A stretch of DNA of 64,000 bases from a virus, in IMG/VR virus record IMGVR_UViG_3300045051_000987, positions 1 to 64,000 of that record. One strand, written 5' to 3'. Position 1 is the stretch's first letter, and each line of letters opens with the position of its first letter. The position numbers and the translations under genes were made by a program. This document shows, one piece after another, positions 26,986 through 63,172 of this stretch. The notes under the pieces were generated by a model. The model was not told the origin of the DNA. It saw only the letters and a program-made list of their open reading frames with translations, and ran no database searches.

Positions 26986-28056
26986 TCAGGCGTAGGAGGC
27001 CGGCTCGATCGTCGATCGGCAGTACGCGTGCAGCGGAGGGAGCGGGGGAGTCATCGCGGCGAGCTGCGCGCCGGTGAGCGCGTTCGAGTAGCTCCCTCGG
27101 TCGTCGCGCGCGCCCACACCCGATCGATCGATCGTCGCGATCACCTCGCGCCCGTTGCCGCGATCGACGTAGATGATCCTCGAGCCGTCCTCGGCGCGGC
27201 CGCTCCGCACCCACGGCGCGACGTTGTAGACGTCGTTTGGGTTCGTGAGCGTCGAGAGCTGATCGCGCGCTGCGATCGCGCCGCTGAGCGGGAAGATCTG
27301 CCCGTCGTAGAAGCGGCACTCGTCGGTCGTGACCTCGTCGAGCACGGCCGTGAACGCGTAGCTCTGCACGCCGGCTTCTTGGAACGCGCCGATCTCCGAG
27401 AACGTGCGCGCGCTGTTCACGAACTGACCGGCGATCAGTTGCCAGTACGAGTCGCCGCGCATGACCGTCGAGCCGAGTGCGGTGTTCAGGTCGCGAGCGA
27501 TCTCCGCGCGCCCGAGGCCTTGCTCGAGGCCACGAGCCACGACGTCGCGCGCGGTCGCCGCGAGCTCGTCACGCCGCACGCCGTAGTGGTCGCGGATGAA
27601 GTTGGCCGTCGAGAGGCGGAGGTAGCGCTCGGCGAGGTGATCGCGCTGCGAGAGCGACGCACCGATCGTGAAGTCCCATCGACGCGTCGCCGCCTCGCGC
27701 GTCGAGCCCATGACCCGCGGACCGGCCACGCGGAGCACGCCGGAGATCGACGGGAGCGCGCGCGCGGGCGCCGTCCCGATCGCAGCTCGAGCGGCCTCGA
27801 TCACCGCCTCGCGCGCGGCCGCGTTCAGGTTCGGCCAGTCCACGTCGAGCTCGCGGATCGCGAGAGCCACCGCTTGCGCCTCGCCCTCGCCCGCCGCCGC
27901 CGCGAGCGCGCGCCGCACCTGAGCGACGATCCGGAGGTAGCCGCTCGGCGCGAGGGGGTTGATCGAGGCCTTCTCGACGGGGATGTGGAGGGCCTCGGCG
28001 ATCTCGTCGACGGCGTGTCCGACGCAGCACGCGAAGCCCGAGTCGACGCGGAGCAT
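26986..28056 (-). CDS. Head morphogenesis / minor capsid protein (Mu gpF, SPP1 gp7-like)
   Basis: AVLDEVTTDECRFYDGQIF and PPLHAYCRS; start reassigned to 28056. Confidence 0.85.
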   Translation of the reverse strand: MLRVDSGFACCVGHAVDEIAEALHIPVEKASINPLAPSGYLRIVAQVRRALAAAAGEGEAQAVALAIRELDVDWPNLNAAAREAVIEAARAAIGTAPARALPSISGVLRVAGPRVMGSTREAATRRWDFTIGASLSQRDHLAERYLRLSTANFIRDHYGVRRDELAATARDVVARGLEQGLGRAEIARDLNTALGSTVMRGDSYWQLIAGQFVNSARTFSEIGAFQEAGVQSYAFTAVLDEVTTDECRFYDGQIFPLSGAIAARDQLSTLTNPNDVYNVAPWVRSGRAEDGSRIIYVDRGNGREVIATIDRSGVGARDDRGSYSNALTGAQLAAMTPPLPPLHAYCRSTIEPASYA

Positions 28057-30122
28057 CACGCCCCCTTTGCGATCGGAACCGTCGGCTTGATCGCGAACTT
28101 CTTCACCAGCTCGTCGAGCGGCATCGTGATGCGCTCCTCTTCGAGCGCGGGCGCCGGATCGGTGCCCGTCGTCGTGTCGCCGGCACGCACGGCCGCGATG
28201 TGCTCGGCGTGCGCCTGCTCTTCCTCGAGCTTCTCGAGCTCGTCGCGGAGGCCGAGGATCGTGCCGGCGAACGCCATGAGGTTCTTCGTCGAGGTCTTCG
28301 TCGCGCGGACGTTCGCCGCCCACGTGAGTACTTGCCCCGCGCGTCCCTTCGCGGCCGGCTTCGGCGCCGGCTTCTTCTCGCCGCCCGCGTCGGCGCCCTC
28401 TTCCGCAGCGGCTCCGGGGCCCTTCGGCGCCGTGCTTTCGTCGAGGCCGGGGATCTTGCCGTCGAGCGATCCGTCGAGCGGTACGCCGACCTGCGTGAGC
28501 ATCGTGGGCTGGTAGACCCAATCGGCGTCGATCTTCGGGAGCGGGCTGTTGAAGACGAGCTCGGCCGCGAGCCGGCGCGCGTCGTTCGGCACGAGCACGT
28601 TGGCGGTCGTGAGGTCGGCGATGATCTCGGCGAGCACCTTCGGGTCGCGCACGACGGTGCTGTTCGACTGGAACTTCCAGAACCGGATCCCGAGCGAGCC
28701 GAGCACGATGCGGTTCATGAAGAAGTCGAACTCGACGCGCTCGGGCCCGAAGACCTGAGCCTCGGCGAACTCGAGCGCCGCGTCGGCCGTCGCGCGGTTG
28801 AAGTCGCGCACGTCGCCTCGAAGCATGCGGCTCAATCGGAACTGCATGCCGATCTTGTCGAGGCCTCGCTCGTCGTACTTCTGGAAGAGCCCGTCGCCTT
28901 GCTGCGCGCTCGTGAGCGGGCGGAGCTCGATCTTGAGGCGCCCCGCGGCGAGCGGATCGCCCTCGTTGCCCTGCGCGGGCTCGCCTTCGATCACGAGGAT
29001 TTTGTGAAAGTTGCGCGCGCCCTTGATCTCGTTGTCGATGTAGTCGCGGATGTTGGTCACGCTCTCGCTCGACACGCGCCCGCCGGAGACGAGCAGTGCG
29101 AGCGGGGGCACGCTCTTGTTCTCGAAGTAGAGGTAGTTGACCTCTTCCGCGGAGCGCATGCCGAGCACGCTGATCAACGTGCCGATCCATCGAGGTACGC
29201 CGTACTGCGTGCGCGGCGCGTGGATGCGGAAGTGCATGATCTCAGTCGCGGGGAGCGCCGGGCCTTCGTCCCCGCGTCCGGGCTCCTTCGTCGAGAGCTC
29301 GAGCGCGCTCGAGTAAGTCCGGCCGGTGCGCGAGCTCATCACGCGCGGATCGCCGAACTCCTTGAAGTAGACCACGCGCGAGTCGATGACCTGCACGAAG
29401 CGGCGGAAGCGTCGCTTGAGGCGCTCGGTACGCACCGAGATCGGCGACACGCGCACGGGCACCTTGATCTCGACGAACTGCGGGCCTTGCGGGAGCAGGC
29501 GCATCGTGTGGGCCTGCACGTAGTTGAACTGCGCGACGCGGTTCGTGTCGTCGCGGAGCACCTCCCAATAGCCGTTGCCCGTGACCTCGAGATCCTGTCG
29601 CGTGCGCTTGCGGAGCGAGATGAAGCTCTCCTCGATGGTCGCCATCTCGAAGAAGAGGTCGAGCTTGTGCCGCTCGATCCGCATCTCGTCTTGGATGATC
29701 GAGATCCGCTTCGCGACCTCGTCAGCGGTGGGCACGAGCTTCTCGACGATCTTGCCGGCGTCCTTCGCGGCGAGGCGCTCGATGTAGATCGCGTTCGCGA
29801 CCTGCGCGACGAGATCATCGCTGTCGAGATCGATGAGCGGCTCGAAGTGATGCCCGTTGCCGTCGATGTTCGTCGCGTACGCGTCGACGCTCGGGCGGAG
29901 CGCGCTCGAGCACTCGAAGACCTCGCACAGCGTGCTCATGTTGAAAGGCGGGACGATCGCGCCGGCCTCGAAGAACGCCTTGCGAGCGGTCTCCTCGTCG
30001 ATCGTGTTCGTGAGCTCGCGGGGCCGCCCGTCGCCACCGATCATGATCGACTTGAGCACCGGCGATCGCGTCACGCGCTCGACGCGCTTCTCGGTCTCGC
30101 TCTTCTTCACCCGACTTCGCAT
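28056..30122 (-). CDS. Portal protein (PBSX-like)
   Basis: DLEVTGNGYWEVLRD, EIMHF, YGVPRW, YFENKSVP, FNRATA. Confidence 0.92.
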   Translation of the reverse strand: MRSRVKKSETEKRVERVTRSPVLKSIMIGGDGRPRELTNTIDEETARKAFFEAGAIVPPFNMSTLCEVFECSSALRPSVDAYATNIDGNGHHFEPLIDLDSDDLVAQVANAIYIERLAAKDAGKIVEKLVPTADEVAKRISIIQDEMRIERHKLDLFFEMATIEESFISLRKRTRQDLEVTGNGYWEVLRDDTNRVAQFNYVQAHTMRLLPQGPQFVEIKVPVRVSPISVRTERLKRRFRRFVQVIDSRVVYFKEFGDPRVMSSRTGRTYSSALELSTKEPGRGDEGPALPATEIMHFRIHAPRTQYGVPRWIGTLISVLGMRSAEEVNYLYFENKSVPPLALLVSGGRVSSESVTNIRDYIDNEIKGARNFHKILVIEGEPAQGNEGDPLAAGRLKIELRPLTSAQQGDGLFQKYDERGLDKIGMQFRLSRMLRGDVRDFNRATADAALEFAEAQVFGPERVEFDFFMNRIVLGSLGIRFWKFQSNSTVVRDPKVLAEIIADLTTANVLVPNDARRLAAELVFNSPLPKIDADWVYQPTMLTQVGVPLDGSLDGKIPGLDESTAPKGPGAAAEEGADAGGEKKPAPKPAAKGRAGQVLTWAANVRATKTSTKNLMAFAGTILGLRDELEKLEEEQAHAEHIAAVRAGDTTTGTDPAPALEEERITMPLDELVKKFAIKPTVPIAKGA

Positions 30123-30433
30123 CACGCCTCCGCGCGGACGTTCATCCCGCCGTACATCACGACCGGATCGCCATCCGTGAAGGCCGCTGTGCGCACGCGC
30201 AGCATGCGGAACGAGCCCTCGTAGAACACGATCTCGGGCGCTGTGATCTGATCGATCTCGACCCACGTCACGCCGTCGTTCGAGACCTCGACGCGCAGGT
30301 TCGCGGTGAAGGTGCCGGAGACCTGGATCGTGTGGTCGATGCAGATCTCGGGGTAGCGCGAGGGTGAGCCCTCACTGAGCGGGCCCGGCGTGGCGTCGCG
30401 CTTCACGTCGACGGCGTGGAACTCGGGGCGCAT
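30122..30433 (-). CDS. Small beta-sandwich protein, paralogue A
   Basis: VSGTFTANLRVEVSNDGVTW...ITAP...RMLRVRT. Confidence 0.65.
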   Translation of the reverse strand: MRPEFHAVDVKRDATPGPLSEGSPSRYPEICIDHTIQVSGTFTANLRVEVSNDGVTWVEIDQITAPEIVFYEGSFRMLRVRTAAFTDGDPVVMYGGMNVRAEA

Positions 30434-34449: not shown

Positions 34450-35274
34450 TCATTCCTCGATCGGACGGTACCCCGTGCGTGCGACCTGACCGAGCATCTC
34501 CCGACGCCAATCGAGCGCCGTGGGAAGGTCGTTCTGCATCCCCGTCTTCTCACGTCGCTCGTGGAAGCTCCACGCGAGAGAGTCTGCCGATCGGAAGCTC
34601 GATCCCGCGAGCGCGATCAGCCCGGTCTTCTTGAGGCCGAAGCCGTGGAGGTTCCGCAGCTCGAGATCGTCGAGGCGCATCGTCACGCGGAGGAGCAGAT
34701 CGGTCGACTGACGACGGCACACCGATCCGACGCCGACGACGGGCTCCTTCGAGAGATCGACGCCCGCGCGCGCGTAGAGCTCGGCGCAATCGAGGTAGGA
34801 CGCCGAGAGCCACCCTTGAAGCACCGGCGCGATCGGGAGGTCGGGCGCGATGCTCCGCAGCTCGAGGAAGTTGTCGACCGTGCGCCGCTGGTGCTCCTCG
34901 ACGCTCAGGCCCGTCTTCGCCGTCACGACGGGCTCGCACATCCAGTCCATGGGCGCCGCCCATTCGAGCTGTCCGACCTCGTCTCGAAGGCGCCGCACGT
35001 CGTCGCAGTACTCGCGCGGCGTGCGCGTCCACCGGCCGTGCTTGTTGAGCTCGGTGAAGCCCCCGGAGTCGAGCGCCCACGGGCCCCGAGCGCGCGGGAG
35101 ACGCGCCATCGCACCGAAGGCCTGACGCGCCACGAAGAGCCGGCACGGGGCCTCCGCGAGCCACCCCGGGCGGTGCACGCCGAGATAGAAGCGGAGGGGC
35201 ATGTCGGAACCCGCGTAGACCGGCGCGGGGGCCTTCACGCGGCCCGGGATCAGGCTGAGGTCGAGCTGACGCAT
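34450..35274 (-). CDS. TGT/DpdA-like base-exchange (transglycosylase-fold) protein
   Basis: LDSGGF, MDWMCEP, PVLQG, GVGSVCRR, LHGFG, SADSLAWS. Confidence 0.78.
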   Translation of the reverse strand: MRQLDLSLIPGRVKAPAPVYAGSDMPLRFYLGVHRPGWLAEAPCRLFVARQAFGAMARLPRARGPWALDSGGFTELNKHGRWTRTPREYCDDVRRLRDEVGQLEWAAPMDWMCEPVVTAKTGLSVEEHQRRTVDNFLELRSIAPDLPIAPVLQGWLSASYLDCAELYARAGVDLSKEPVVGVGSVCRRQSTDLLLRVTMRLDDLELRNLHGFGLKKTGLIALAGSSFRSADSLAWSFHERREKTGMQNDLPTALDWRREMLGQVARTGYRPIEE

Positions 35275-35886: not shown

Positions 35887-36168
35887 TCAGCCCTTGCGGG
35901 CGAGGAAGCTGAGGGCCGCCTTGAGCGTCGAGAAGGTCTCCACGAGGACGAACTCGCCATCGTTCATGTCCGGGCCGTCGAGCTCGCGCGTGGGGAAGCG
36001 GACGACCTCGACAGTCGTGAGGAGCGCCGAGGTGAGGTTGATCGCGTGACCGCCCTTCACGAACGACGAGAGGCGGTAGGCCGGGTTCGTCGTGAACGAG
36101 ACGCCGTTCGCCGCGCACCACGACTCCTGGGCCTGCGTGAGCTTCGTGATGTAGCCGTTCGTCGTCAT
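35887..36168 (-). CDS. Hypothetical protein
   Basis: 93 aa, AAGGAG SD downstream of class E promoter. Confidence 0.65.
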   Translation of the reverse strand: MTTNGYITKLTQAQESWCAANGVSFTTNPAYRLSSFVKGGHAINLTSALLTTVEVVRFPTRELDGPDMNDGEFVLVETFSTLKAALSFLARKG

Positions 36169-36207
36169 GGTCTCGTTCTCCTTGGGGCAAGCCCCGCGTC
36201 ACCGTCT

Positions 36208-36255
36208 CGATTGATTTAGGTATACACCCACCATCCCGAACGCGCCAGAAAAAAG
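36208..36255 (-). promoter_or_regulatory. Repeated promoter class E, copy 3
   Basis: Same two conserved blocks, same spacing, different spacer. Confidence 0.75.
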
Positions 36256-36280
36256 ATTCGCCCCGATGTCGATTTCTTCC

Positions 36281-36778
36281 TCAGCCCTTCGGCGCCGGGC
36301 ATTCGCACGGCTTGCCGCGGTCGTTCAGCTCGCAGCACCCCGCGCGTTCCTCGACCACGAGCTCGTCGAGCCCGTACCCGACCGTGCGACCCGCGAGCCG
36401 GGCGAACATCCGCGCGCAGTACTTCGGGAAGCGGCCCGATGACCCGATGATCTCTTCGGCGTCGACCCACGCGCACCGGCGCGATCGAAGCGTGTCGTCG
36501 TGGGTCGCGATCGGACGCTCGCGCCGATCCTCCCATCGCGTCGCGAGGAAGGCCTCGCACGTGTGCGGGCCGGCGCTGTAGACGAGGATCGACGCGGCGC
36601 CGAGAAGCACGATCCCGGTCTCCTCGAAGAGCTCGCGCGACGCACACGCGAGGCTCGAGGCATCGGAGGCCTCACGCCGGCCACCGGGGAGCCCGAGCCC
36701 GTCGGGATGAAGCTCGACGAGCACGAGGTGCTTCGTGGGGTGGAAGAGGAGCACGCACGCTGCATTCGGCTCGGTCAT
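36281..36778 (-). CDS. NUDIX hydrolase
   Basis: LPGGRREASDASSLACASRELFEETGI Nudix box. Confidence 0.88.
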   Translation of the reverse strand: MTEPNAACVLLFHPTKHLVLVELHPDGLGLPGGRREASDASSLACASRELFEETGIVLLGAASILVYSAGPHTCEAFLATRWEDRRERPIATHDDTLRSRRCAWVDAEEIIGSSGRFPKYCARMFARLAGRTVGYGLDELVVEERAGCCELNDRGKPCECPAPKG

Positions 36779-37326
36779 GACGTTCCTTCTCGCACGCGAC
36801 GCGCGCGCACCACAACGAGGGCGAACACGCGCCCGGCTTGATCGCCGGGCATGCGGATCGCGACGACGAGCTCAGGCGCGCGCTCGAGCACGACGAGCTC
36901 GGCGCCGGTGAGCGTGGCCTGGTGTCGCGCGCACGCGAGCGCGTCAGACGCGCCGTGCTCGTCGATCGTCCACTCCCATCCGGGCGTCGTCGCGAAGAGC
37001 ACCTCGCGCGCAGCGCCGTCGACGCCGAGCGACTCGACACGCTCGAGCGGGAGCGTGAGCACCATCGCCGTCGGGAGCTGCGCGCGCTCAGCGAGCGGGG
37101 CTCGCACGCGGCCTCTGATCTTCGACGTGTTCACCCGGGTGAACACGGGGCGCGGCGGACGTCCCTCGAGCGCGCGCAGGCGTCGAATGCACGTCGTCTC
37201 GTGCGGGTGGAAGGCTTGATCCGTCGCTTCCCCGATCGCGCGCGCCGCATCGGCGAAGCGCACGCCTTCAACGCGGATCTTCTTCACGAGGAGCGCGTCG
37301 AGCTCCGCCGTCCATGTCGAGGCCAT
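36775..37326 (-). CDS. Hypothetical protein with possible N-terminal HTH (GcrA/Myb-like)
   Basis: WTAELDALL...EGVRFADAARAIG. Confidence 0.5.
   Translation of the reverse strand: MASTWTAELDALLVKKIRVEGVRFADAARAIGEATDQAFHPHETTCIRRLRALEGRPPRPVFTRVNTSKIRGRVRAPLAERAQLPTAMVLTLPLERVESLGVDGAAREVLFATTPGWEWTIDEHGASDALACARHQATLTGAELVVLERAPELVVAIRMPGDQAGRVFALVVVRARRVREGTS
37128..37145. repeat. 18-bp palindrome copy 6 (intragenic)
   Basis: TGTTCACCCGGGTGAACA. Confidence 0.95.
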
Positions 37327-37651
37327 CGGCCCGATCATGCCGCGACGCGTGCTCACGCATCCGGCGCTTCACCTCGGCCCGACCTCGCTCGACGATGCCC
37401 CGCACGACGTCGGAGATCCCGACGCGCATTGCCGGCGACACGGCCTGGGTGAGGAGCCGGGTCGAGACGCGCTCGAAGATCGCAGCCTCGCGATCGGCGT
37501 CGCACGCGTCGAGGCCCGAGCGCACCTTGATCTGAGCGATCCGCTCGAGCTTGCGCCCGCGCGCGATGAGCAGGTCGACGATCGCATCGTCGATCACGTT
37601 GATCTCGTGCCGCACGAGCTCGAGGTCGGCCGGGATGGGCGTGTCGCTCAC
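37268..37651 (-). CDS. Chorismate mutase type II (AroQ-like)
   Basis: LELVRHEINVIDDAIVDLLIAR...IAQIK...DADRE: R11, R28, K39, D48, R51, E52 spacing of the E. coli enzyme; GTGA overlap with cmoA-like gene. Confidence 0.82.
   Translation of the reverse strand: MSDTPIPADLELVRHEINVIDDAIVDLLIARGRKLERIAQIKVRSGLDACDADREAAIFERVSTRLLTQAVSPAMRVGISDVVRGIVERGRAEVKRRMREHASRHDRADGLDMDGGARRAPREEDPR
37334..37343 (-). promoter_or_regulatory. Class M motif GCGGCATGAT, 7 nt before ATG 37326
   Basis: One of 11 copies. Confidence 0.6.
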
Positions 37652-38379
37652 GACGACCTCACCGCGAGCCACGCGCCGAAGCTCAGGCACCGCCACACGC
37701 ACTCGACGGTCGTGAAGCCGGCGCCGCGGAGGAGATCCTCGTTCCACCGCGCCGTGCACGGCACGAGCACGCCCTCGAGCGATGCGGCCTTGCGGTCGAT
37801 CTCGTCGCGCGAGTAGCCCGCGGCCTCCTTTTCCGCGTGGTAGAGCGCGGTGAGCGCCTCGTCGGCCTCCGCGTCGCTCCCGAGCACCTTCTCGACGACG
37901 ATCAGCGCCCCGCCGGGCATCGTCGCCTTGAACACGTCGCGGAGGATGCGCTGGCGATGGTTGATCGGGAGGAACTGCATCGTGAGCACCGCGAGGGTCA
38001 CGCTCGCGCGCATGCTGAGCGACGGGTAGCCGGCGCGGAGGTCGGTCCCATGCACGAAGACGCGCCGCGTCGCGATCTCGCCTGCGAAGCGCGTGCGGCA
38101 GACCTCGAGCATCGGCTTCGACGTCTCGACGAGCTCGAAGACGTTCCGCAGCTCCGCGCGCGCGATCAGAGGAGCGATCGCGTCACCGCGCGAGGCGCCG
38201 AGGTCGACGATCGAGGAGCCCGGGCGCGCGTAGCGGTCCGCGAGGTTCGTCACGACGTCGCGCATCGCGTCGAGCTGCGGGATCGAGCGTCGGAGCATGT
38301 CCTCGAAGACACTCGCGACGCTCTCATCGAACTCCCATCGCTCGCGCGCGGGAAGGTGCCCAAGGCTCGACTCGCTCAT
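37648..38379 (-). CDS. cmoA: Carboxy-S-adenosyl-L-methionine synthase-like protein
   Basis: WEFDESVASVFEDMLRRSIP, DLGASRG, LTMQFL, PGGALIVVEK, K..AGYS..EI..K match CmoA along the whole length. Confidence 0.85.
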   Translation of the reverse strand: MSESSLGHLPARERWEFDESVASVFEDMLRRSIPQLDAMRDVVTNLADRYARPGSSIVDLGASRGDAIAPLIARAELRNVFELVETSKPMLEVCRTRFAGEIATRRVFVHGTDLRAGYPSLSMRASVTLAVLTMQFLPINHRQRILRDVFKATMPGGALIVVEKVLGSDAEADEALTALYHAEKEAAGYSRDEIDRKAASLEGVLVPCTARWNEDLLRGAGFTTVECVWRCLSFGAWLAVRSS

Positions 38380-39488
38380 GGGGCCGAGGATGCCTCGATC
38401 CAGCCCTCACGCACGAGCCCGAGCGGTGCGAAGACGCGATCGCGCAGCTCGCGCCCGATCGCGAACATCATCGGGGGCGGGACGCTGCGCGCGAGCCGCT
38501 CCCATTGCTGAGCGAACGTCCCCGTGAGCTCGAAGTCGTCGGGGAAGCCGCAGATCCGACGCAGCTCGCGGATCGTGAACTTCCGGCGCTCGAGCGGGTG
38601 CGTGACGCTCGCCGCGGGCTCGCCGCCCTTCACCGTGATGCACGGGCTCGGCTTGTTCACCGGCGCCTTGATCAGGTTGAAGTACTTCTCGGACCACACG
38701 CCGGGCCGGAGCTTGTTCCACTCCGCATCGAGGCTCGGAACCATCGCGCGGCGCGCGGCCTCGAGCTCCTCGATCGTCGGCTCGATCCCGCTCGGCTCAC
38801 CGATGATGTGCGGGATCGCTTCGGCGAGCGTGAACGCGCGCGCGAAGGGCTTGGGGTAGGGCACGTCGCTCGACGTCGCGATCCCGAGCTCGCTCGCGAG
38901 ATCACGGCGCACGCCGACGAGGATCACGCGCCCGCGCTGCTGAGGGACACCGAGCCACTGAGCATCGAGCTCGCGAGCGGCCGCGACGTAGCCAGCCGCC
39001 TCGAGCCGCTTCATCACCGTGTGGAAGTAGCCGAAGGCCTTGCCGCGCACGAAGCCCGACACGTTTTCTGCGATGAACGTCTTCGGCTTCACGCCCTCGA
39101 GCAGGCGGAGCCACTCGAAGAAGAGATCGTCGGTGCGCTGCTTCACGCCCGAGTAGGCCTTCACCTGGCCCCATCCCTTCTCGCGCGCGCCCACCATCGA
39201 GAAGCTCGAGCACGGGGGAGAGCCCTCGAAGACGTCGAGCTCTCCGGCCTTCACGCCCGCGCGCTCGAGCACCTCCTCGGGATGCACCGATCGGATGTCA
39301 CGCGGATCGAGGAAGACGCTCGCCGCGTGGTTCTTCACGTACGTCGCGCGCGCCTCCTCGATGAACTCGTTCGCGAAGACGACGTCGAAGCCGGCCATCT
39401 CGAGGCCGAGGCACGAGCCACCGCACCCTGAGAACGTCGACGCGACTCGCAGCCCCGTGGTGCCCCGTGCGCGCGCGATCGCGGCCAT
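38376..39488 (-). CDS. C5 cytosine DNA methyltransferase-fold enzyme, candidate carboxymethyltransferase (start uncertain)
   Basis: FSGCGG, GSPPC, ENV, Q.R.R, motif IX, and motif X reading LARSVPP instead of GNxVP. Confidence 0.88.
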   Translation of the reverse strand: MAAIARARGTTGLRVASTFSGCGGSCLGLEMAGFDVVFANEFIEEARATYVKNHAASVFLDPRDIRSVHPEEVLERAGVKAGELDVFEGSPPCSSFSMVGAREKGWGQVKAYSGVKQRTDDLFFEWLRLLEGVKPKTFIAENVSGFVRGKAFGYFHTVMKRLEAAGYVAAARELDAQWLGVPQQRGRVILVGVRRDLASELGIATSSDVPYPKPFARAFTLAEAIPHIIGEPSGIEPTIEELEAARRAMVPSLDAEWNKLRPGVWSEKYFNLIKAPVNKPSPCITVKGGEPAASVTHPLERRKFTIRELRRICGFPDDFELTGTFAQQWERLARSVPPPMMFAIGRELRDRVFAPLGLVREGWIEASSAP

Positions 39489-39513
39489 GTCGGGGACGCG
39501 GTAGCTCGTCGGC

Positions 39514-40179
39514 TCAGCTCTTCGTGACGGGGTTCCCGTGCCCGCAGCGCGAGCAGTAGACGATCGCCTTCGAGTTTGCATCGTGCTCCTTGAAATCCCC
39601 CGGGCTCTCGCGCCCGCTCGCACCCGGCCGATCGTCGCGCCCCGTCCCGATGTCCTTGAGCGTCGCGAGCATCGTCGTGACCTGCTCGTCGCTCCATCCG
39701 AGGCCTGCGACGCCGGGCTCGTACTCGCGGTGATCGGCGAGCATCTTCGTGAGGAGCTCCTCGTCGTAGCCCGCCGCGCGCCCGTGCTGGTTGTCCGCGA
39801 GCAGGTAGGCCTCGGCCTCCTCGGGGCCCGACCACGAGAGCCCGCGGATCACCGGCACGAGCCAGTCACCGTCGGGAGCGACGTCGATGCGCGCGGGACG
39901 CACCTTGCCGGTCGATCGGAGTGCGAGGAGCACCTCGATGCGTCCGTGACCCGCCACGACGGTCTGCGTCGTCTCGTCGAGCATCACCGGGAGCGTGTAG
40001 CCGAAGCGGTTCATCGACGCGGTCACGCCGTCGACGTCGTGGCGCTTGGGGTTCCGCGGCGCCTGGTGCTCGACGAGCCACGAGAGGCGCTCGTAGCTGA
40101 TCCGCATGCGCGCGGGCTCGGGGATCGGGGTCTGCGGAGGAGTCGGTGAAGGGGTCTTCTTCGTGCGTGCGTTCGCCAT
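39514..40179 (-). CDS. ParB/Srx N-terminal domain protein with C-terminal CxxC
   Basis: RNPKRH...SMNRFGYTLPVMLD...VVAGHGR...YLLADN; CSRCG. Confidence 0.8.
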   Translation of the reverse strand: MANARTKKTPSPTPPQTPIPEPARMRISYERLSWLVEHQAPRNPKRHDVDGVTASMNRFGYTLPVMLDETTQTVVAGHGRIEVLLALRSTGKVRPARIDVAPDGDWLVPVIRGLSWSGPEEAEAYLLADNQHGRAAGYDEELLTKMLADHREYEPGVAGLGWSDEQVTTMLATLKDIGTGRDDRPGASGRESPGDFKEHDANSKAIVYCSRCGHGNPVTKS

Positions 40180-40224
40180 GTGCTCCCTGCTCGGCGCGAC
40201 CGTAGCAGGGCCAGGGGAGCGACG

Positions 40225-40500
40225 TCAGCCGCTCTCGACGCTCTCGCTCACGACCATCGGGGGCTTCACCTCCGACGTCGGCCACGGTGGACGCACGCGC
40301 CCGCCGTCCTCGAGCATCATCACGCTCTTCACGAGGGTGTTCGGGTCGACGCCGAAGCGCGCGGCCGCGACCTCGAGCAGCGCCTTCGCGATCGACTCCT
40401 CGGAGGAGTCGGCGGGCGTCGCGCAGTACGCGTAGACGATGTGCGCGAGATACTCCTCGGCCGTCACTTCTCGACCACGCTCCTTCTCAGCTTCCGGCAT
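40225..40500 (-). CDS. Hypothetical protein
   Basis: Fills gap; start uncertain. Confidence 0.45.
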   Translation of the reverse strand: MPEAEKERGREVTAEEYLAHIVYAYCATPADSSEESIAKALLEVAAARFGVDPNTLVKSVMMLEDGGRVRPPWPTSEVKPPMVVSESVESG

Positions 40501-41011
40501 CTCCGGCCTCCTTCTCGAGGTTCGCGAACTTGAAGCCGCACGAGCACGGCGTCGGTGCGACGAGCGACCTCTCGGCGAGAGCACCGCACCGAGGGCACGT
40601 CGTGTGGACCTTCATCCCTTCGATCGCGCCATCGCCATCGAGCACACCGACCACGCCGGCACGTCGCGCGAACGCGACCGCGCGCCGCGTGACGCCGACG
40701 TGACCCTCGATCCATCCCACGCGAAGCCAGTGCAGACGCGAGCGGATCGAACGGTCGCGCGTGCTCTGCGCGATCATCGCGAAGAGCTTCGGCGCGATGT
40801 CGAGGAGCGCGTCGTCGACGGCGACCTTGCGAGCTGCGAGGCGCGTCGCCATCACCGCGACGTTCGCGCCGATGAGAGCGACGGGGAAGCTCTTCGGCGT
40901 GAAGAGCTGAGGGTGCGCGCGAAGGATGCGAAGCGCCTCCTCGAGAAGCGCGGTCACGCTCTTGAGCTCCTCGGCCGTGAGGGCTCGATCGTCGTGCTCG
41001 TTGTTCGTCAT
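40487..41011 (-). CDS. Hypothetical protein with zinc ribbon
   Basis: CPRCG...CSCG. Confidence 0.6.
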   Translation of the reverse strand: MTNNEHDDRALTAEELKSVTALLEEALRILRAHPQLFTPKSFPVALIGANVAVMATRLAARKVAVDDALLDIAPKLFAMIAQSTRDRSIRSRLHWLRVGWIEGHVGVTRRAVAFARRAGVVGVLDGDGAIEGMKVHTTCPRCGALAERSLVAPTPCSCGFKFANLEKEAGDAGS

Positions 41012-41018
41012 GTGGCGT

Positions 41019-41288
41019 TCATCGGATCAGCGCGAGCCGGGGTGTGGCCGCGATGGTAGCAGGGGTGGGGGCTCGAACGATCGCACCGGCCTTCGACGCA
41101 TCTTCGAGACCATCGACGAAGGCTTCGCGCGCGGCGTGCTCGCCGGCACGCCGATCGGGATCGAAGAGCGCCGTCGCCATGCGGGTCATGATCCGCGAGC
41201 TCCACACCGACGCGTCGAGCGGCGTGCGCCACGTCCATCCGTTCTCGGCGAGCCGCAGATCGAGCTCGGCGCGGGTCTCGTCGCTCAT
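41019..41288 (-). CDS. Hypothetical protein
   Basis: MSDETRAELDLRLAENGW; start uncertain. Confidence 0.45.
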   Translation of the reverse strand: MSDETRAELDLRLAENGWTWRTPLDASVWSSRIMTRMATALFDPDRRAGEHAAREAFVDGLEDASKAGAIVRAPTPATIAATPRLALIR

Positions 41289-41317
41289 CGTGAACACGGG
41301 GCCGGAGCGTACAGGGA

Positions 41318-42196
41318 TCAGCCCGCGTCGCGCGGGGGTGAGTCGTCCTCGCCATCGTCGCGCGGCATGAGGCGCTGAGCTCGCTCGACGAGGCGCGTGA
41401 GCCGCGTGACCTGCACGCCGCCGTTCGGATCGGCGCCCATGCGGATCGCGTAGGCCGTGAGGCCGGAGACGAGCACGCGCTTCTCGCTCTCGATGGTGTG
41501 GTCGAGCGTGACGCTGCATCCGAGCATGCCGAGCGTCGATTCCGTGTCGGCGGTCGCCGACATCACGAGCTCGGCGACGAAGTCCTCGAAGCTCTGCTCG
41601 CGATCCTTCCACACGTAGTCGGTGAGCCACGAATCGTCGCTCGTGAGCACGTCGATCAGCGTCGCAGCGACGCGCATGAGGCGAGGGAGCGGCTTCGCGA
41701 CGACCTTCTCGATCGCGACAACCTCCTCGAGCCGCGTCTTCGCATCGACGCCGAGCGCCGCGCACGCACGCTCGAAGGCATCCTCGATCGCCGAGGGCAC
41801 GATGCCGGGGAGCGAGGTGAGCAGGCGCATCTTCACGATGGCGCCCGCGAGGCGATCGAGAAACTCGTGCTCGGTGTCGACGAGGGCGCGAGACTGAGGC
41901 GCCATCATGAAGCGGATGTCGAAGACGAGATGGTTCTTCGTCTTGGCGACGTGCACGACCTCGAAGTTGCGCGTGTCGTCCGTCTTGAAGACCTCGTTCG
42001 ACTTGAGGAAGTCGCTGACCACATCGCGCATGGCGCGCCGCGAGGCCTCGGTGTTCGTGTCGCCCGCGAAGAGTGAGGCGAGCGTGTTGCGGAGCCGCGT
42101 CTCGACGTTCTTCGTGACGATGATGGGCTCGGCGATCGAATGGTCCGGCTCCTTGAGCACGACCACGGTTTCGGGATCGAACAGCAAATCAGACAC
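41318..42196 (-). CDS. Hypothetical protein
   Basis: 292 aa, GGAGG SD. Confidence 0.7.
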   Translation of the reverse strand: MSDLLFDPETVVVLKEPDHSIAEPIIVTKNVETRLRNTLASLFAGDTNTEASRRAMRDVVSDFLKSNEVFKTDDTRNFEVVHVAKTKNHLVFDIRFMMAPQSRALVDTEHEFLDRLAGAIVKMRLLTSLPGIVPSAIEDAFERACAALGVDAKTRLEEVVAIEKVVAKPLPRLMRVAATLIDVLTSDDSWLTDYVWKDREQSFEDFVAELVMSATADTESTLGMLGCSVTLDHTIESEKRVLVSGLTAYAIRMGADPNGGVQVTRLTRLVERAQRLMPRDDGEDDSPPRDAG

Positions 42197-43105: not shown

Positions 43106-45076
43106 TCAGCGGCCCGCGGTGAGCCTTCGGATCCGGTCGCTGATCGTCGCTGCGTCCGCACGACGCGGGAGCGACGACGGAAGGCCCTCGTGACCGCCGA
43201 TGATGCGCGCGCGCACCTCGCCCTTGCGCGTCTGCATCCCTCGAAGCCGACGGAGCGCCCACGTGCGAGCGAACCAGAGCCCCATGAGCCGATCGCCGGG
43301 GTGCGCACCGGGCACGTACGCGCGCATCTCGCCGAGGAGACGACGCACCTCGTCGGGCACGTCCTTGCCGTTGCGGCCGCTCGGGAGGCGCCATCGGTTC
43401 GCCTCGAACTCCGCCGCCATCGCGTCGATGCCGAGCACCTCGTCGTACTTGTTCCGGCCCGTGTAGAAGGGGAGCACCGGAACGCTGATAGACGAACCCT
43501 CCTCGTTCGCGAGGTCGACGATGTGCTTCTGGATGCCGTTGTCCTCGACCACGATGAAGCCGCCGAAGCGGTCCGCGACGTCGGAGAGGTTCCGCATCAC
43601 ATCGCCACCGCTCCATCGACCTGCGCGCGCGGCCACGAGCTGACGCATACCCGAGGGGTGCACCGCGATCGTGAACATCGTCGTCGCGCCGCCGGTCATC
43701 TTCCGCGACGCACCGAGATCGCAGCCCGTCACGATGAGCGTGCCCGACGGAGGCTCGCCGATGTTGTCGACGAAGCGGTAGCCCATGCCGAGACGGAGCG
43801 CGGCGCGGAGCCATTCGGGACGGAACGACATCGCACCGGGGTCACGCGGCTCGCACATGTACATGCGCGCGAACTCGAGCTCGTTGGCCTGCGTCTTCCG
43901 AACCTGTCGGATGCGGTGAAGGGGCCATCGCTCCGGCCACGTCGGGTTCCCCGCTTCGTCGAGCACGGGGTAGCGAAGCGTCACCCATCCGCCCTCACCG
44001 AGCTCGTGCGCGAGGTCTTCCTCGTGCCACGCGTTCGTCAAGAAGACCATCTTCGCCCCGGACGTGAGACGAGTCATGAACGTCCGACGGAACCAAGACG
44101 ACGTGTCCGCGCGCGCGGGAGCGCTCCGCGTGTTCTCGTAGTCGAGGAGGTCGTCGACGACGGCTCGATCGATGCGGGCGCCGAGGATGTTGCCGTGGAA
44201 GCCGAGACAGTAGATCGACGGGTCGCGCGCGAGAGACGCACGCTCGATGGTGATGGCGTCCTCGCGCCATAGACCGCCCGGACGGAGGTGAGGGAACACC
44301 GCCCGCAGCTCCGTCGAGCGCTCGAGGTATTTCTTCGTCGCCGAGAGGTTCTTCTTCGCGCCGTCCTGACCGTTGTTCAGGAACACCGTGCGGAGGTCGG
44401 GGTTGTTCCCGAGCTCGAAGAGCGTGCGCCCGACCGCGAACTGCTGTGTCTTCCCCGACTCCGGGTGTGCGAGGACGATCATGAAGTCCTCGCGGTCGTA
44501 GGTCGCCTGCATCTCGAGGTGGATGCGCGCTTGCTCGATGTCGGCGCCCGTCTCTTCGTCCTTGAGGACGAACTCGTTGAAGGTGTTCACGTCACGCCGC
44601 GCGAGCGCGAGGAGGCTCTCGTAGGCGTACCTCCCGGCCTCGATGCCGTCGGTCGGGAGCATGTCGTCGTCTTCGTCGCCGCCGGGGCTCTGAGAGGCGC
44701 CTGAGAGCGGCACCGAGGCATCCGACTCGATGGGGGGCTCGCCCGAGGCCCATACCGGACCGGTCTCCGACTCGGAACCGACGGGCACGGGGCCCCCGAG
44801 CGTGTCGGATTGATTTAGGATGCGGTCAGTTGCCGATTTTTGTAGCGAATCGGTGGAGGGGGGGACTACGGCCCTGAGCGCGCCGCGCGCGACGGAACTC
44901 GACCCCTCCCCCCCTCCCCCCGATCGTGAACCGCCGGCCACACTGCTCGCCTGCTTCCTGGGCTTGGGGCCTCGTGGTGCGTAGGGATCGACGACCTTCT
45001 TCGTTGCGTGTTCACCCGGGTGAACACGTGAGGGTGAGGGCTGCTCGAGCTGTCCCTTGTACATGCTCCGCTTCAC
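43106..45076 (-). CDS. terL: Terminase large subunit (true start may be 44662)
   Basis: PESGKT Walker A-like, VVDD Walker B, GCDL and GDRLM nuclease acidic residues, VVEDNG.Q. Confidence 0.9.
   Translation of the reverse strand: MKRSMYKGQLEQPSPSRVHPGEHATKKVVDPYAPRGPKPRKQASSVAGGSRSGGGGEGSSSVARGALRAVVPPSTDSLQKSATDRILNQSDTLGGPVPVGSESETGPVWASGEPPIESDASVPLSGASQSPGGDEDDDMLPTDGIEAGRYAYESLLALARRDVNTFNEFVLKDEETGADIEQARIHLEMQATYDREDFMIVLAHPESGKTQQFAVGRTLFELGNNPDLRTVFLNNGQDGAKKNLSATKKYLERSTELRAVFPHLRPGGLWREDAITIERASLARDPSIYCLGFHGNILGARIDRAVVDDLLDYENTRSAPARADTSSWFRRTFMTRLTSGAKMVFLTNAWHEEDLAHELGEGGWVTLRYPVLDEAGNPTWPERWPLHRIRQVRKTQANELEFARMYMCEPRDPGAMSFRPEWLRAALRLGMGYRFVDNIGEPPSGTLIVTGCDLGASRKMTGGATTMFTIAVHPSGMRQLVAARAGRWSGGDVMRNLSDVADRFGGFIVVEDNGIQKHIVDLANEEGSSISVPVLPFYTGRNKYDEVLGIDAMAAEFEANRWRLPSGRNGKDVPDEVRRLLGEMRAYVPGAHPGDRLMGLWFARTWALRRLRGMQTRKGEVRARIIGGHEGLPSSLPRRADAATISDRIRRLTAGR
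45009..45026. repeat. 18-bp palindrome copy 7
   Basis: TGTTCACCCGGGTGAACA. Confidence 0.95.
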
Positions 45077-56983: not shown

Positions 56984-57982
56984 TCACGGCGTGAAGTCGG
57001 CCTTCGGCGTGCTCGTCTCCGAGATCTCGACCTGCAAGCCTCGCAAGCGCTTCGTGACGCGCGCGGGCGTGCGCGGGTCGAGATCGATGCCCACCCCACG
57101 ACGGCCGAGCACGCACGCCGCCTCGAGCACCGTGCCGGTCCCGACGAACGGATCGAGCACCACGTCGTTCGGCCGCGAGCTCGCGAGGATGCACCGGCGC
57201 GGGAGCTCCACCGGGAACGTCGAGTAGTGGTCGCCCTTGTACCGCCCGCCTCCGAACGACCACACGTCTCGGAGGTTCGCGCCCATCGGCTCGCCGTTCT
57301 CGTCGAGCTTCGCCGCGCGCTTCTTGCCCCACCGCCCGAGCCCGTACGACGCAGCTCGAGGATCGGGAACCGTCGCCGATCGCGCGGGGCCCTGCGCCTG
57401 TAGGCGGAGCGTGTTCGGCCTGAGCGGCTGTCGCACGGCGTTCGCGTCGTAGAAGTAGTGCGCGCGCCGCGAGAAGAGGAACACGTGCTCGTGAGACGAC
57501 GTCGGCCGATCCTGCATCGAGCCCGGCACGGGCGAGGGCTTCGACCAGATCACCTCGCTGCGAAGGATCCACCCGTCGGCTTGGAGCGCGAGCGCGACGC
57601 GCCACGGGATCCCGATCAGGCTCTTGCGCGGCAGACCGCACAGCGTGCTCTTGCTCTCGATGTTCGGAACGAGGTCATGTCGCTCGGGCGTCGAGAGCTT
57701 CGAGCTCTTGCCCGTGCTCCCTCGACGCGAGCCCGAGTAGCTGTCGCCGAGGTTCAACCACATCGTGCCGTCCTTCCGCAGCCCGCGGCGCGCCTCACGG
57801 AACGTGAGCACCATCGCCTCGACGAACGCATCGGGCGTCGGCTCCATCCCGATCTGCCCGTCGAGCCGGTAGTCGCGGAGGTGCCAATAGGGCGGGCTCG
57901 TCACGATCGTCTGCACGTTCTCGACGGTGCCGGCTAGCTCGCGCGCGTCGCCGACGAGGATCCGAAACCGCTCCTCGGTCAT
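56984..57982 (-). CDS. DNA methyltransferase, N4-cytosine/N6-adenine beta class
   Basis: TSPPY, LNLGD, IWSK, H..TFP.EL, DPFVGTGT. Confidence 0.92.
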   Translation of the reverse strand: MTEERFRILVGDARELAGTVENVQTIVTSPPYWHLRDYRLDGQIGMEPTPDAFVEAMVLTFREARRGLRKDGTMWLNLGDSYSGSRRGSTGKSSKLSTPERHDLVPNIESKSTLCGLPRKSLIGIPWRVALALQADGWILRSEVIWSKPSPVPGSMQDRPTSSHEHVFLFSRRAHYFYDANAVRQPLRPNTLRLQAQGPARSATVPDPRAASYGLGRWGKKRAAKLDENGEPMGANLRDVWSFGGGRYKGDHYSTFPVELPRRCILASSRPNDVVLDPFVGTGTVLEAACVLGRRGVGIDLDPRTPARVTKRLRGLQVEISETSTPKADFTP

Positions 57983-58938: not shown

Positions 58939-59300
58939 CGGTCGCCGGCCTTCTTGATCTCGGTCGACGTGAGGATCGGCGGAGCCTGCGGGACCTTCGA
59001 GATGATCTCAGCACCGCACTGACCTGCGACGTCGGCGGAGGGGTCGTGCCAGTGATCGCCGGCGTGTCCGCGTCGAAGCGTGCACACGAAGACGCCCTCG
59101 CTCACGAGCGTCACCGCGGTCTTGAGCGGGCTCGTCGCCGGCATCGCGGCCGCCGCCTCGGCCATCGCGACGTCATGCCGCCGAAGTACTTCGCGCAGCG
59201 CGCGAGCGAACGTCGGCCCGTCGATCCCCGCTGCGAACGCGAAGGCCTCGAGCCCACGCACGAGGCGCTTCACCTCTTCGTCGTCGCTCACCTTGATCAC
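58935..59300 (-). CDS. Hypothetical protein
   Basis: GTG 59300 after GGAGG; C....GH.G.H. Confidence 0.55.
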   Translation of the reverse strand: MIKVSDDEEVKRLVRGLEAFAFAAGIDGPTFARALREVLRRHDVAMAEAAAAMPATSPLKTAVTLVSEGVFVCTLRRGHAGDHWHDPSADVAGQCGAEIISKVPQAPPILTSTEIKKAGDR

Positions 59301-61069
59301 GTGGGCACCTCCGCGAGCATCATGCCGCCCATCGGGATCCCGTTCGGCTGAACCCACACCGATCCCGAGTCGAGCGAGAAGCCGCCGAGCTCGGACGCTG
59401 CGAGCGTCACGAGCATCTTCTCCGCGATCGCGCGCGCCGCACCGACGGGCACCGCGTTGCCGATGCGCTCCCGCCAGTCGCTCTGACTCTTGCCGGCGAG
59501 CACGAGCGGCGCGCCCTTCCACATCGTCGGGATCCCTTGGAGCGACGCAAGCTCGAGCGTCGTGAGCGGGCGGTGCCATGTCCCGTCCTTCGCGATGATC
59601 ACGGGGAGGAACGACGGCGCCTTCTTCGGCGTCGCGGCCGCGAGCCTGAGCGCCTCCTCGATGTCGGCGTTGAACGATGGGCCCGTGCGCGGCTCCGCCA
59701 CCGCGTACGCGCCGCACCCAACATGCGCGGTGCCTGCGATCGTGCGCGCGGCCTGCTCCCACCCGAGCACGGCATAGCCGGCGTCATAGGCGTACTTCAC
59801 GCGGACATCGGCCACACGCGGATCACCGACAGCGGGCCCGCCCGATCCGGGCTGCGTCGCCTTGATCACCGTGCGCGCGGGCTCGCTCCACTTCCCGACG
59901 GCGTACTTGTTCCAGTGCCGGCCCTCGCTCGGCGGGAGCTCGAGCGCGCGCGGGTCGGCCACCGCGAAGCGACCGTTCGAGGGGAGGCTCTCGCCGCACA
60001 CCGCGCCGGTCGGTTCCTCCCACGGCGAGACGCCGTAGGCGCCCGCGTGCGGCCCTCGGGGGTCGGCGACAGCGAACGCCCCGGTCGAGACGCCTGCTCG
60101 CCCTGTGACGGTCGGCGCGGGGCCCTCCCATGCCTTCACGCCGAGCACGCCCCCGAACCATTCGATCCGCGGTTCCTGCACGACGCCGATCGCGTTCGCA
60201 CCGGCGCCCGTGATCGTGCCGGTCGGCTCATCCCACGGCGCGACCTCGTGCCGCTTGAAGACCTCGCGCCTCGCCTGACCCTCGGCGAGCACGCCTTCGA
60301 GGTCACGCCAATCGCCGCCGGCCGGGATCATCGCGATGCGGACCCAGTTGAGGAACGAGATCTTCGGGAGCTCGTGGATCTTCCCGAACGCGCGCGCGTC
60401 CTCTGTCGCCGGCACGGGGAGCGACTCGAGCACCTCGCCGCACGCGCGCACCCGCTTCTTCGGGGGCTGGTAGAGCAGGCTCGAGCACCGCGCCTCGAGC
60501 CTCGCGACGAGCAGGTAGCGCCGTCGACGCTGAGCGAGCCCGCCGATCTCACCGCAGTCGTGGAAGCCCTCGTGCAGCCGGTAGCCGACGCCGCGGAGGA
60601 GCTTCTTCACCTGCTCGAGCATCGCCTTCGCGCGCGTCTTGAGGCGCGGCACGTTCTCGAGGAGCACGAGCCTCGGGAGCGAGCCCTTCCACGCCTCGAT
60701 CATCTTGCGCGTCCACGTCAGCGCGAGCGTGTTCATGCGCTGATACTTCTCGGTCTCGGCGAGCTCCTTCGGGAGGAGCCCGCTCGCCCCCTTGCACGGC
60801 GGGCTCATGAAGACGCAGTCGGGACCGATCGCGCCGTACCGCTCGAGGAGCTCGGCGACGGTGATCTCCTCGACGTCGCGGTGCCACGCCGTGCGCGTGT
60901 CGGTGAGGTAGTCGAAGTCGCGACACGCGTCCGGATCGAAGTCGATCCCGCCGATGCACTCGAAGCGGAGCGCGTGCCCGAAGAGGTGCGCGTGCGCATC
61001 GAGGAAGCCGCGAGCTCCCGCGCCGAGACCACCGAAGGGGAAGAGCGCGCGGAAGACGATCTCGCTCAC
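59297..61069 (-). CDS. C5 cytosine DNA methyltransferase with repeated variable region
   Basis: FGGLGAG, SPPC, ENV, QRRRR, ERIGNAVP; several W..P......V.DPR repeats. Confidence 0.92.
   Translation of the reverse strand: MSEIVFRALFPFGGLGAGARGFLDAHAHLFGHALRFECIGGIDFDPDACRDFDYLTDTRTAWHRDVEEITVAELLERYGAIGPDCVFMSPPCKGASGLLPKELAETEKYQRMNTLALTWTRKMIEAWKGSLPRLVLLENVPRLKTRAKAMLEQVKKLLRGVGYRLHEGFHDCGEIGGLAQRRRRYLLVARLEARCSSLLYQPPKKRVRACGEVLESLPVPATEDARAFGKIHELPKISFLNWVRIAMIPAGGDWRDLEGVLAEGQARREVFKRHEVAPWDEPTGTITGAGANAIGVVQEPRIEWFGGVLGVKAWEGPAPTVTGRAGVSTGAFAVADPRGPHAGAYGVSPWEEPTGAVCGESLPSNGRFAVADPRALELPPSEGRHWNKYAVGKWSEPARTVIKATQPGSGGPAVGDPRVADVRVKYAYDAGYAVLGWEQAARTIAGTAHVGCGAYAVAEPRTGPSFNADIEEALRLAAATPKKAPSFLPVIIAKDGTWHRPLTTLELASLQGIPTMWKGAPLVLAGKSQSDWRERIGNAVPVGAARAIAEKMLVTLAASELGGFSLDSGSVWVQPNGIPMGGMMLAEVPT
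59319..59328 (-). promoter_or_regulatory. Class M motif with short SD-containing leader
   Basis: GCGGCATGAT. Confidence 0.55.
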
Positions 61070-62358: not shown

Positions 62359-63156
62359 TCACTGCGCGTCGGCGATCACGTCGTCTTCGTCGTCGCGGAG
62401 CGTCTCGCCCTCGCCGGGCATCTGTTCACCCGGGTGAACACGCGTCGCCTTCCGCTCTTCGAGGTAGCTCAGCACGCGCGAGAGGCGCGGTTCAGCGAAC
62501 CCGAGCGGGCGCAACGATCCATCGCCGAGCACGGTGTCTCGCCCCTCGAAAAGAGCGGCCACGCCCGCCGTCGCAGCGCCGCACACCGGATCGCAGACGA
62601 CGTCGCCGGGGCGCGAGTAGTCCTCGACGATCTGCCGCATCGCCCAGAGCGGCTTACCGCCCGTCATGAGGAGCTTCTCGCGCGGGCCCATGTACGCGCC
62701 GCGTCCGATGGTCCCCCAGCTCGAGAGCTCGGCGGGGCGCGCGACGAGGATGAAGTAGCTCCACGGGCTCGGGCCGTCGCCTCGAAGGCGCACGCGCGAG
62801 CCGGTCACCACGAGAGGGATCGGAGGGAAGCCGGCGTAGTACCCTGCGCGCTCGGCCGCGCGTTGCCATGCGGGCCAGAGCACGTGATCGGTGATCGAGA
62901 CGAGCCACCCTCGATGCACCTCACGCCACGTGTCGACGAAGACGTGCACGTCTTCCGGCGTCCAGAACGCGTAGGGGATCGACGAGCGCCCGCCGGGCCG
63001 CGTGCTGTCGTGCCCGGTGTGCGTGCGCTCGGAGTAGGGCGTGTCGGCCGTGATGAGGTTCACCACCTCACGGCGCGCGCGCAGCTCGCGAGCGAGGTCG
63101 GTGGCGTCAGCGTGGAAGAGCGAAACGCGCCGGTGCTCGAGGAGGGAGATCGTCAC
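62359..63156 (-). CDS. Divergent N4/N6 DNA methyltransferase-like protein
   Basis: DTPY for DPPY; KPLWAM..IV..YSRPGDVVCDPVCGAAT. Confidence 0.75.
   Translation of the reverse strand: MTISLLEHRRVSLFHADATDLARELRARREVVNLITADTPYSERTHTGHDSTRPGGRSSIPYAFWTPEDVHVFVDTWREVHRGWLVSITDHVLWPAWQRAAERAGYYAGFPPIPLVVTGSRVRLRGDGPSPWSYFILVARPAELSSWGTIGRGAYMGPREKLLMTGGKPLWAMRQIVEDYSRPGDVVCDPVCGAATAGVAALFEGRDTVLGDGSLRPLGFAEPRLSRVLSYLEERKATRVHPGEQMPGEGETLRDDEDDVIADAQ
62423..62440. repeat. 18-bp palindrome copy 13 (intragenic)
   Basis: TGTTCACCCGGGTGAACA. Confidence 0.95.
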
Positions 63157-63162
63157 CGCGGC

Positions 63163-63172
63163 ATCATGCCGC
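63163..63172 (-). promoter_or_regulatory. Class M motif, 6 nt before GTG 63156
   Basis: GCGGCATGAT. Confidence 0.7.

Follow-up and report, generated by a model that had tools for sequence, protein, structure and literature searches.

A predicted DNA cytosine carboxymethyltransferase of the CmoX type, encoded with CmoA and a chorismate mutase homologue in a phage of an uncultivated lineage

Background

The DNA cytosine C5-carboxymethyltransferase CmoX of Synechococcus phage S-B43 (SpCmoX) is a homologue of the cytosine C5 methyltransferases (C5 MTases), and makes 5-carboxymethylcytosine (5cxmC) from carboxy-S-adenosylmethionine (Cx-SAM), itself the product of a phage-encoded CmoA (Yang et al., Nat Commun, 7 December 2025; PMC12783734). 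The subject here is a predicted gene of this type, followed directly by a cmoA homologue and a chorismate mutase homologue, in the first 64 kb (64,000 nucleotides, the window) of the IMG/VR virus record IMGVR_UViG_3300045051_000987, whose 113,552 bp are 100% complete by CheckV. In the 1.9 Å structure of SpCmoX (PDB 8YF3), Arg350 replaces Asn304 of M.HhaI in motif X and directly touches the carboxymethyl group of Cx-SAM; the other contacts named are F25, E47, F48 and D69, and the nucleophile is C98 (PMC12783734). The wild-type enzyme uses Cx-SAM only, and R350N accepts neither Cx-SAM nor S-adenosylmethionine (SAM), so that the arginine is necessary for activity and may be something other than a simple switch of cofactor. 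SpCmoX recognises GC, and in S-B43 virion DNA a glycine amide alone was detected, with no free 5cxmC (PMC12783734).

The authors of that work point out that the arginine 'strikingly mirrors' the N374K substitution of M.MpeI (PMC12783734), an engineered carboxymethyltransferase that uses Cx-SAM; in M.CviPI too, cationic substitutions at the homologous residue give carboxymethyltransferase activity (PMC13288465). (The tRNA U34 carboxymethyltransferase CmoB binds the carboxylate of the same cofactor via Lys91, Tyr200 and Arg315; PMC10491745.) Crystallography and mutagenesis have thus already established that a motif X arginine determines the use of Cx-SAM. SpCmoX and its relatives were defined as a family by SPPC together with R350, and mining of IMG/VR v4, UniProtKB and MGnify for this combination gave 5,615 candidates, on whose contigs there were 4,257 CmoA, 2,251 AMP-forming ligases (CmoY-like) and 1,660 ParBc proteins (PMC12783734). 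The availability of prephenate is listed there as an open question, and chorismate mutase is nowhere mentioned. Since the present record is from IMG/VR, its CmoX is likely among the 5,615.

The window enzyme and its motif X arginine

The gene (Table 1) encodes a full-length C5 cytosine MTase (PF00145, E-value 7.6e-49; TIGR00675, 4.7e-44). In frame on the minus strand, positions 38466-38510 specify its residues 372-386, QQWERLARSVPPPMM. A note made earlier from the letters of this DNA had picked out an arginine codon in this segment, at the place of the canonical motif X asparagine, and had proposed the arginine as a natural carboxylate-binding determinant; the codon is there, for residue 379. 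This numbering counts from a GTG. The ATG at 39581 is more likely to be the true start: an AAGGAG Shine-Dalgarno sequence stands 5 nucleotides before it, and the homologue from a Streptomyces phage is annotated to begin at the matching position (alignment A2, below). From there the protein has 401 amino acids.

Table 1. Positions of the genes and motifs discussed, numbered from the first letter of the window
Feature	Positions	Strand	Basis
CmoX-type DNA cytosine C5-carboxymethyltransferase homologue, 415 amino acids from GTG	38376-39623	-	PF00145; sequence and fold matches to 8yf3
Motif X Arg codon CGC (R379 from GTG; R365 from ATG)	38487-38489	-	alignment to SpCmoX R350 and to the HaeIII motif X Asn
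Motif IV S135-P-P-C138, predicted catalytic Cys nucleophile	39210-39221	-	invariant in A2 and A3; corresponds to SpCmoX S95-P-P-C98
CmoA homologue (carboxy-SAM synthase), 243 amino acids	37648-38379	-	TIGR00740, E 5.3e-42; 4gek, E 5.5e-32
AroQ-type chorismate mutase homologue, 127 amino acids	37268-37651	-	Pfam CM_2 PF01817, E 1.1e-9
ParB-like protein, 221 amino acids, directly upstream of CmoX	39514-40179	-	phrog_620, E 3e-25
193-amino-acid open reading frame	36775-37356	-	
Promoter-like motif	37326-37345	-	
NUDIX hydrolase	36281-36778	-	PF00293, E 2.3e-10
Second C5 cytosine MTase, 590 amino acids, motif X RERIGNAVPV (Asn538, codon AAC, 59456-59458)	59297-61069	-	SPPC and ENV motifs
DpdA homologue	34450-35274	-	PF23859, E 1.6e-63; phrog_1279
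N6/N4 DNA methylase	56984-57982	-	PF01555, E 2e-40
Weak partial methylase match	62359-63240	-	PF01555, E 3.6e-5
Large terminase subunit	43106-45076	-	phrog_38, E 2e-51
Portal protein	28056-30266	-	PF04860

In a sequence search of the whole PDB, the best match by far was 8yf3 (E-value 1.8e-59, over residues 58-398 of the window enzyme), an entry entitled 'DNA cytosine C5-carboxymethyltransferase in complex with Cx-SAM'. The runners-up, M.HaeIII (1.4e-20) and M.HhaI (near 1e-14), came some forty orders of magnitude behind. The alignment to 8yf3 places QQWERLARSVPPPMM opposite QQTERVGRMVPPLMM, and R379 on R350; the pairing is free of gaps over the longer stretch of FAQQWERLARSVPPPMM with HSQQTERVGRMVPPLMM, counted from chain residue 318. 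R379 also pairs with the asparagine of IGNAVP in M.HaeIII. The equivalence of R379 and R350 is based on sequence alignment plus the published superposition, in which R350 occupies the site of M.HhaI N304. The motif X asparagine normally sits next to the methyl group that is transferred, as the earlier note had said. Agreement extends to the predicted fold. An AlphaFold2 model made with 27 relatives as input (mean predicted local distance difference test score 77.5, predicted template modelling score 0.80) is closest in fold to 8yf3 (E-value 8e-28, template modelling score 0.84 when normalised to the target), which ranks before HaeIII, HhaI and the catalytic domains of DNMT1/MET1.

Two alignments were used to follow individual residues: A2, of SpCmoX, the window protein, gp123 of Streptomyces phage TurkishDelight and a homologue from Moraxella phage Mcat8, and A3, of 27 IMG/VR relatives. 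SpCmoX F25, E47, F48, D69, C98 and R350 correspond to F64, E86, F87, D109, C138 and R379 of the window enzyme and all are invariant in both alignments, as are E186, the glutamate of the ENV motif, and R230 and R232 of motif VIII. The window enzyme shares with SpCmoX the C5 MTase fold, SPPC, the motif X arginine, the residues that contact the cofactor and a phage cmoA beside the gene. Its variable region, which serves target recognition, is different, and a specificity for GC cannot be assumed for it from SpCmoX. M.HhaI, M.HaeIII and the second MTase of the window have the same fold and motifs I, IV, VI, VIII and X in common with it, but have asparagine in motif X, use SAM and are far more distant (E-values of 1e-14 to 1e-20, against 1e-59 for CmoX). 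M.MpeI N374K, the product of the Kohli laboratory which the earlier note had correctly described as a user of Cx-SAM, likewise has a cationic residue for the motif X asparagine and forms 5cxmC; there, however, it is a lysine in a laboratory mutant made from a methyltransferase and specific for CpG, whereas here a natural arginine is found with a supply of the cofactor encoded alongside.

These sequence and fold matches, the residue equivalences, the gene order and the co-occurrence of arginine with cmoA among relatives (both below), taken with the role of the arginine in the SpCmoX literature, point to a Cx-SAM-dependent DNA carboxymethyltransferase of the CmoX type, with a probability put at roughly 85%. 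The activity, cofactor preference and product that we infer are those of a predicted enzyme. The proposal of the earlier note is supported at each of its steps: R379 is at the motif X position, R350 contacts the carboxymethyl group in 8YF3 and wild-type SpCmoX takes only Cx-SAM. As CmoX and the role of its arginine were published in December 2025, the note arrived correctly at something already known; the window gene is a new, divergent member of a family already described, and the gain from it is incremental.

Could the gene instead be a decaying copy, its enzyme inactive or degenerate, beside a working second MTase? The change from glycine to alanine in motif X (below) is unusual and would fit such decay. 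Against this, none of the residues for catalysis or cofactor binding has been lost, the reading frame is unbroken and its third-position GC is high (0.88), as is typical for expressed genes of this genome, and the gene is translationally coupled to two intact partners. Of the alternatives weighed here this is the least probable.

Proposed supply of the cofactor

The ATG of cmoA overlaps the stop codon of the CmoX-type gene by 4 bp (ATGA), and the GTG of the chorismate mutase gene overlaps the stop codon of cmoA by the same number (GTGA). The CmoA homologue matches TIGR00740 over its full length (positions 13-238 of 239) and also matches the E. coli CmoA structure 4gek. CmoB (PF08003), which also uses Cx-SAM made by CmoA and recognises its carboxylate by cationic and polar residues but which belongs to a separate MTase family and acts on 5-hydroxyuridine (ho5U) of tRNA, was not found in the phage genome. 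There is then no tRNA-directed consumer of Cx-SAM encoded there.

The chorismate mutase homologue scores 38.8 bits on PF01817, above the gathering cut-off of 27; seventeen NCBIfam chorismate mutase models also match it (E-values down to 3e-9), all under their own cut-offs. The active-site residues of E. coli chorismate mutase are here taken to be R11, R28, K39, D48, R51, E52, S84 and Q88. The first six have exact counterparts in spacing in R14, R31, K42, D51, R54 and E55 of the phage protein; the pair in the third helix, corresponding to S84 and Q88, could not be placed. Prephenate, the product of chorismate mutase, is the co-substrate of CmoA, and the chorismate mutase of the window presumably supplies it. 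A jackhmmer search with this protein picked up nothing homologous among the related loci of the first set. When the CM_2 model was run against whole records, one of ten other CmoX phage records was also positive; its gene (L044:2612-3136) has the same orientation as the CmoX gene there and lies upstream of it, at a distance of about 1.8 kb. A chorismate mutase gene coupled to cmoA bears on the question of prephenate supply that the CmoX paper left, and the ligase-free operon that includes it is the sole element here beyond the published picture.

The order ParB-CmoX-CmoA-chorismate mutase differs from that in S-B43, CmoA-CmoY-CmoX. The window phage further differs from S-B43 in having no CmoY ligase (below), in having alanine rather than glycine before the arginine and in the 68% GC of its sequence (as determined in the window). 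The closest homologue in an isolate phage is that of TurkishDelight (43% identity over 87% of the protein, motif X GRAV), where the uncharacterised genes gp121-125 encode ParB, ParB, the MTase, a ligase with a glutamine-amidotransferase domain, and CmoA. TurkishDelight resembles the window in that its MTase gene is preceded by a ParB-like gene and clustered with cmoA, but an AsnB-like ligase stands between its MTase and cmoA and there is no chorismate mutase anywhere in its record. The ParB-like neighbour in the window, for which Pfam gave no match at an E-value of 0.01 or better, agrees both with this order and with the published association of ParBc proteins with CmoX (PMC12783734).

Arginine and cmoA among relatives

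The earlier note had suggested looking for a correlation of the motif X arginine with a neighbouring cmoA among homologues, and one is seen both in the window and beyond it. IMG/VR was scanned twice, and relatives with 39-56% identity to the window enzyme were found at 124 loci, which left 115 sequences once duplicates were removed. Motif X was read at each locus, each was searched with a CmoA profile, and in doubtful cases the whole contig was searched. With arginine in motif X, cmoA was found at 94 loci and not found at 2; with asparagine (17), aspartate (1) or cysteine (1) it was found at none of the 19. One of the two arginine cases lacking it stands for identical sequences on contigs with an estimated completeness of 11-17% and, for the other, the search covered an 8-kb flank only. 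Three contigs estimated to be 95-100% complete are included in the cases with neither arginine nor cmoA. Wherever it can be judged, the raw association is perfect.

It is the asparagine-type relatives without cmoA, which sit beside or inside the CmoX clade, that provide the better comparison. The earlier note had used the second C5 MTase of the window as an 'internal control'; that enzyme does read RERIGNAVPV, with the canonical asparagine, but it is only a distant paralogue and the close relatives are better controls. [Those with asparagine at motif X, no cmoA on the contig and 40-50% identity are L012, L016, L021, L023, L031-33, L040-43, L045, L047, L082, L094, L104, L108-110, L116 and L128.] Their placement suggests that the choice of cofactor may change whenever cmoA is gained or lost.

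A different view of the window gene is that it encodes an ordinary SAM-dependent C5 MTase which tolerates arginine in motif X, with cmoA present for another use, such as RNA modification or the draining of SAM from the host. In its favour, the window enzyme retains all canonical MTase motifs, the scaffold can presumably methylate given its close asparagine-type relatives, and depletion of SAM by CmoA was raised as a possibility by the authors of the S-B43 work (PMC12783734). However, wild-type SpCmoX, with the same arginine, took no SAM at all, cmoA is translationally coupled to the window gene in a phage without CmoB, and it adjoins nearly all enzymes of the arginine type and none of the others. 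An ordinary methyltransferase is accordingly judged very improbable, though slightly less so than a degenerate enzyme.

Several asparagine-type relatives also alter the glutamate four residues before the motif X position (WER to WAR, WMR or WGM), which is invariant in the arginine forms and may pair with the arginine. In Erwinia and Dickeya jumbo phages (H4-H30, H31-H84) the CmoX-like gene matches as two pieces over about 2 kb, which suggests that it carries a large insertion; their cmoA is some 17 kb from it, rather than adjoining.

Points that tell against the assignment

The case for a carboxymethyltransferase has to be set against a number of observations that count the other way. The assignment of the window protein is by homology, and its identity to SpCmoX is only about 36-38%. 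Residue 378, just before the motif X arginine, is alanine, where about 95% of relatives have glycine; the same alanine is found in two relatives of the arginine type that bear cmoA (L091 and L119), and so is a variant that can be tolerated. The score of the CmoA homologue on TIGR00740, 144 bits, is below the equivalog cut-off of 193. This shortfall says little, as the experimentally active SpCmoA scores still lower (115.6 bits). The same CmoA has alanine at the position of E. coli R199 (alignment A1), which, from literature on 4GEK, is taken here to lie beside the Cx-SAM carboxylate. SpCmoA has glutamate at that position and three close relatives have arginine (A1); activity of SpCmoA means that this arginine is not required in phage CmoAs, and a non-functional CmoA owing to its loss was considered and rejected on that ground.

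For the chorismate mutase, the Pfam profile covers just positions 1-59 of 80, leaving the third helix unmatched. On the tree of relatives the sequences with a residue other than arginine fall in two or three groups and a single clade is not rejected (approximately unbiased test, p 0.495), so that the number of phylogenetically independent contrasts is only about 2, and with these a sign test cannot reach significance. The link between arginine and cmoA is for this reason consistent support rather than independent statistical proof. Many independent switches between arginine and asparagine were also considered; the tree gives only 2-3 changes, and neither repeated switching nor a direction is claimed.

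A possible route and the fate of 5cxmC

If the carboxymethyltransferase assignment is right, the AroQ-type chorismate mutase homologue would convert host chorismate to prephenate, from which, with SAM, the CmoA homologue would make Cx-SAM on site. Cys138 of the window enzyme would then attack C6 of a flipped-out cytosine, held by the ENV glutamate and the motif VIII arginines, with the normal chemistry of C5 MTases kept. The guanidinium of Arg379 would pair with the carboxylate of Cx-SAM and exclude SAM, as in SpCmoX, and the carboxymethyl group would be transferred to C5 of cytosines in phage DNA. The resulting 5cxmC might protect that DNA from host restriction.

What then becomes of the mark depends on whether a ligase acts on it. 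In the complete 113.5-kb genome there was no match to Pfam Asn_synthase (PF00733), and a profile made from SpCmoY, gp124 of TurkishDelight and seven homologues from metagenomes found nothing even at an E-value of 10. With no ligase of the CmoY type, the mark would probably remain free 5cxmC, the end product predicted here, unless an enzyme of another kind processes it. The latter case, in which the window enzyme would act as proposed but its 5cxmC would be an intermediate whose carboxyl is converted further (for example by amidation or decarboxylation) by an unrecognised enzyme not of the CmoY type, has in its favour the glycine amide of S-B43 virion DNA, the diverse ligase clusters that accompany CmoX elsewhere (PMC12783734) and the many open reading frames around the window operon that match no family. 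It is nevertheless judged unlikely, though a good deal less so than either alternative above. Apart from the two negative searches for a ligase of the Asn-synthase type in a genome complete by CheckV, the published mining found ligases for 2,251 of 5,615 CmoX, fewer than half (PMC12783734), and the open reading frame which follows the operon has little to recommend it.

That frame, of 193 amino acids, was considered as a possible stand-in for CmoY. Neither Pfam nor PHROG gave a match to it, none of the first 44 related loci holds a homologue, and it was set outside the module. The last part of the chorismate mutase gene contains a promoter-like motif, GCGGCATGAT, 7 nucleotides before the likely ATG (37326) of this frame. 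The motif fits a leaderless promoter, and the carboxymethylation operon would end there. A NUDIX hydrolase gene lies two genes downstream of the operon (in S-B43, a gene for a pyrophosphatase stands just before cmoA).

A self-sufficient route from chorismate mutase through CmoA to CmoX, independent of the host prephenate pool and ending at free 5cxmC, together with a cofactor choice that flips with gain or loss of cmoA, is offered tentatively, at a little under even odds. From the absence of a ligase, free 5cxmC is predicted to be the last form of the mark in this phage. More generally, the arginine-for-asparagine rule of 8YF3 predicts carboxymethyltransferases in distant phages of high GC. 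A CmoX as divergent as this one (about 37% identity, with a different target-recognition region) could bring a new sequence specificity, of interest for sequencing tools based on 5cxmC.

The phage and its other modification genes

Nearly every gene of the window is on the minus strand. A DNA-level search with positions 36000-42000 gave no match to isolate phages, and for the large terminase subunit the identity to any of them does not exceed 24%. From the latter the virus is placed in an uncultivated lineage. A portal protein gene is also present.

The phage encodes at least four predicted DNA-modifying enzymes: an N6/N4 methylase, DpdA, CmoX and the second C5 MTase. In the whole phage, the CmoX-type gene and that of the second C5 MTase are the only two with PF00145. 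DpdA is a transglycosylase that inserts 7-deazaguanine bases into DNA, and with its homologue present the phage may carry a guanine modification besides 5cxmC. A further stretch has a weak partial match to the N6/N4 methylase family (Table 1). In the second C5 MTase the variable region, residues 279-460, holds five tandem units, each of about 35-45 amino acids, with the pattern W-[DES]-x-P/A-x-x-T-[IV] ... A-V-x-[DE]-P-R. The arrangement is reminiscent of multispecific C5 MTases of phages, which carry several modules for target recognition.

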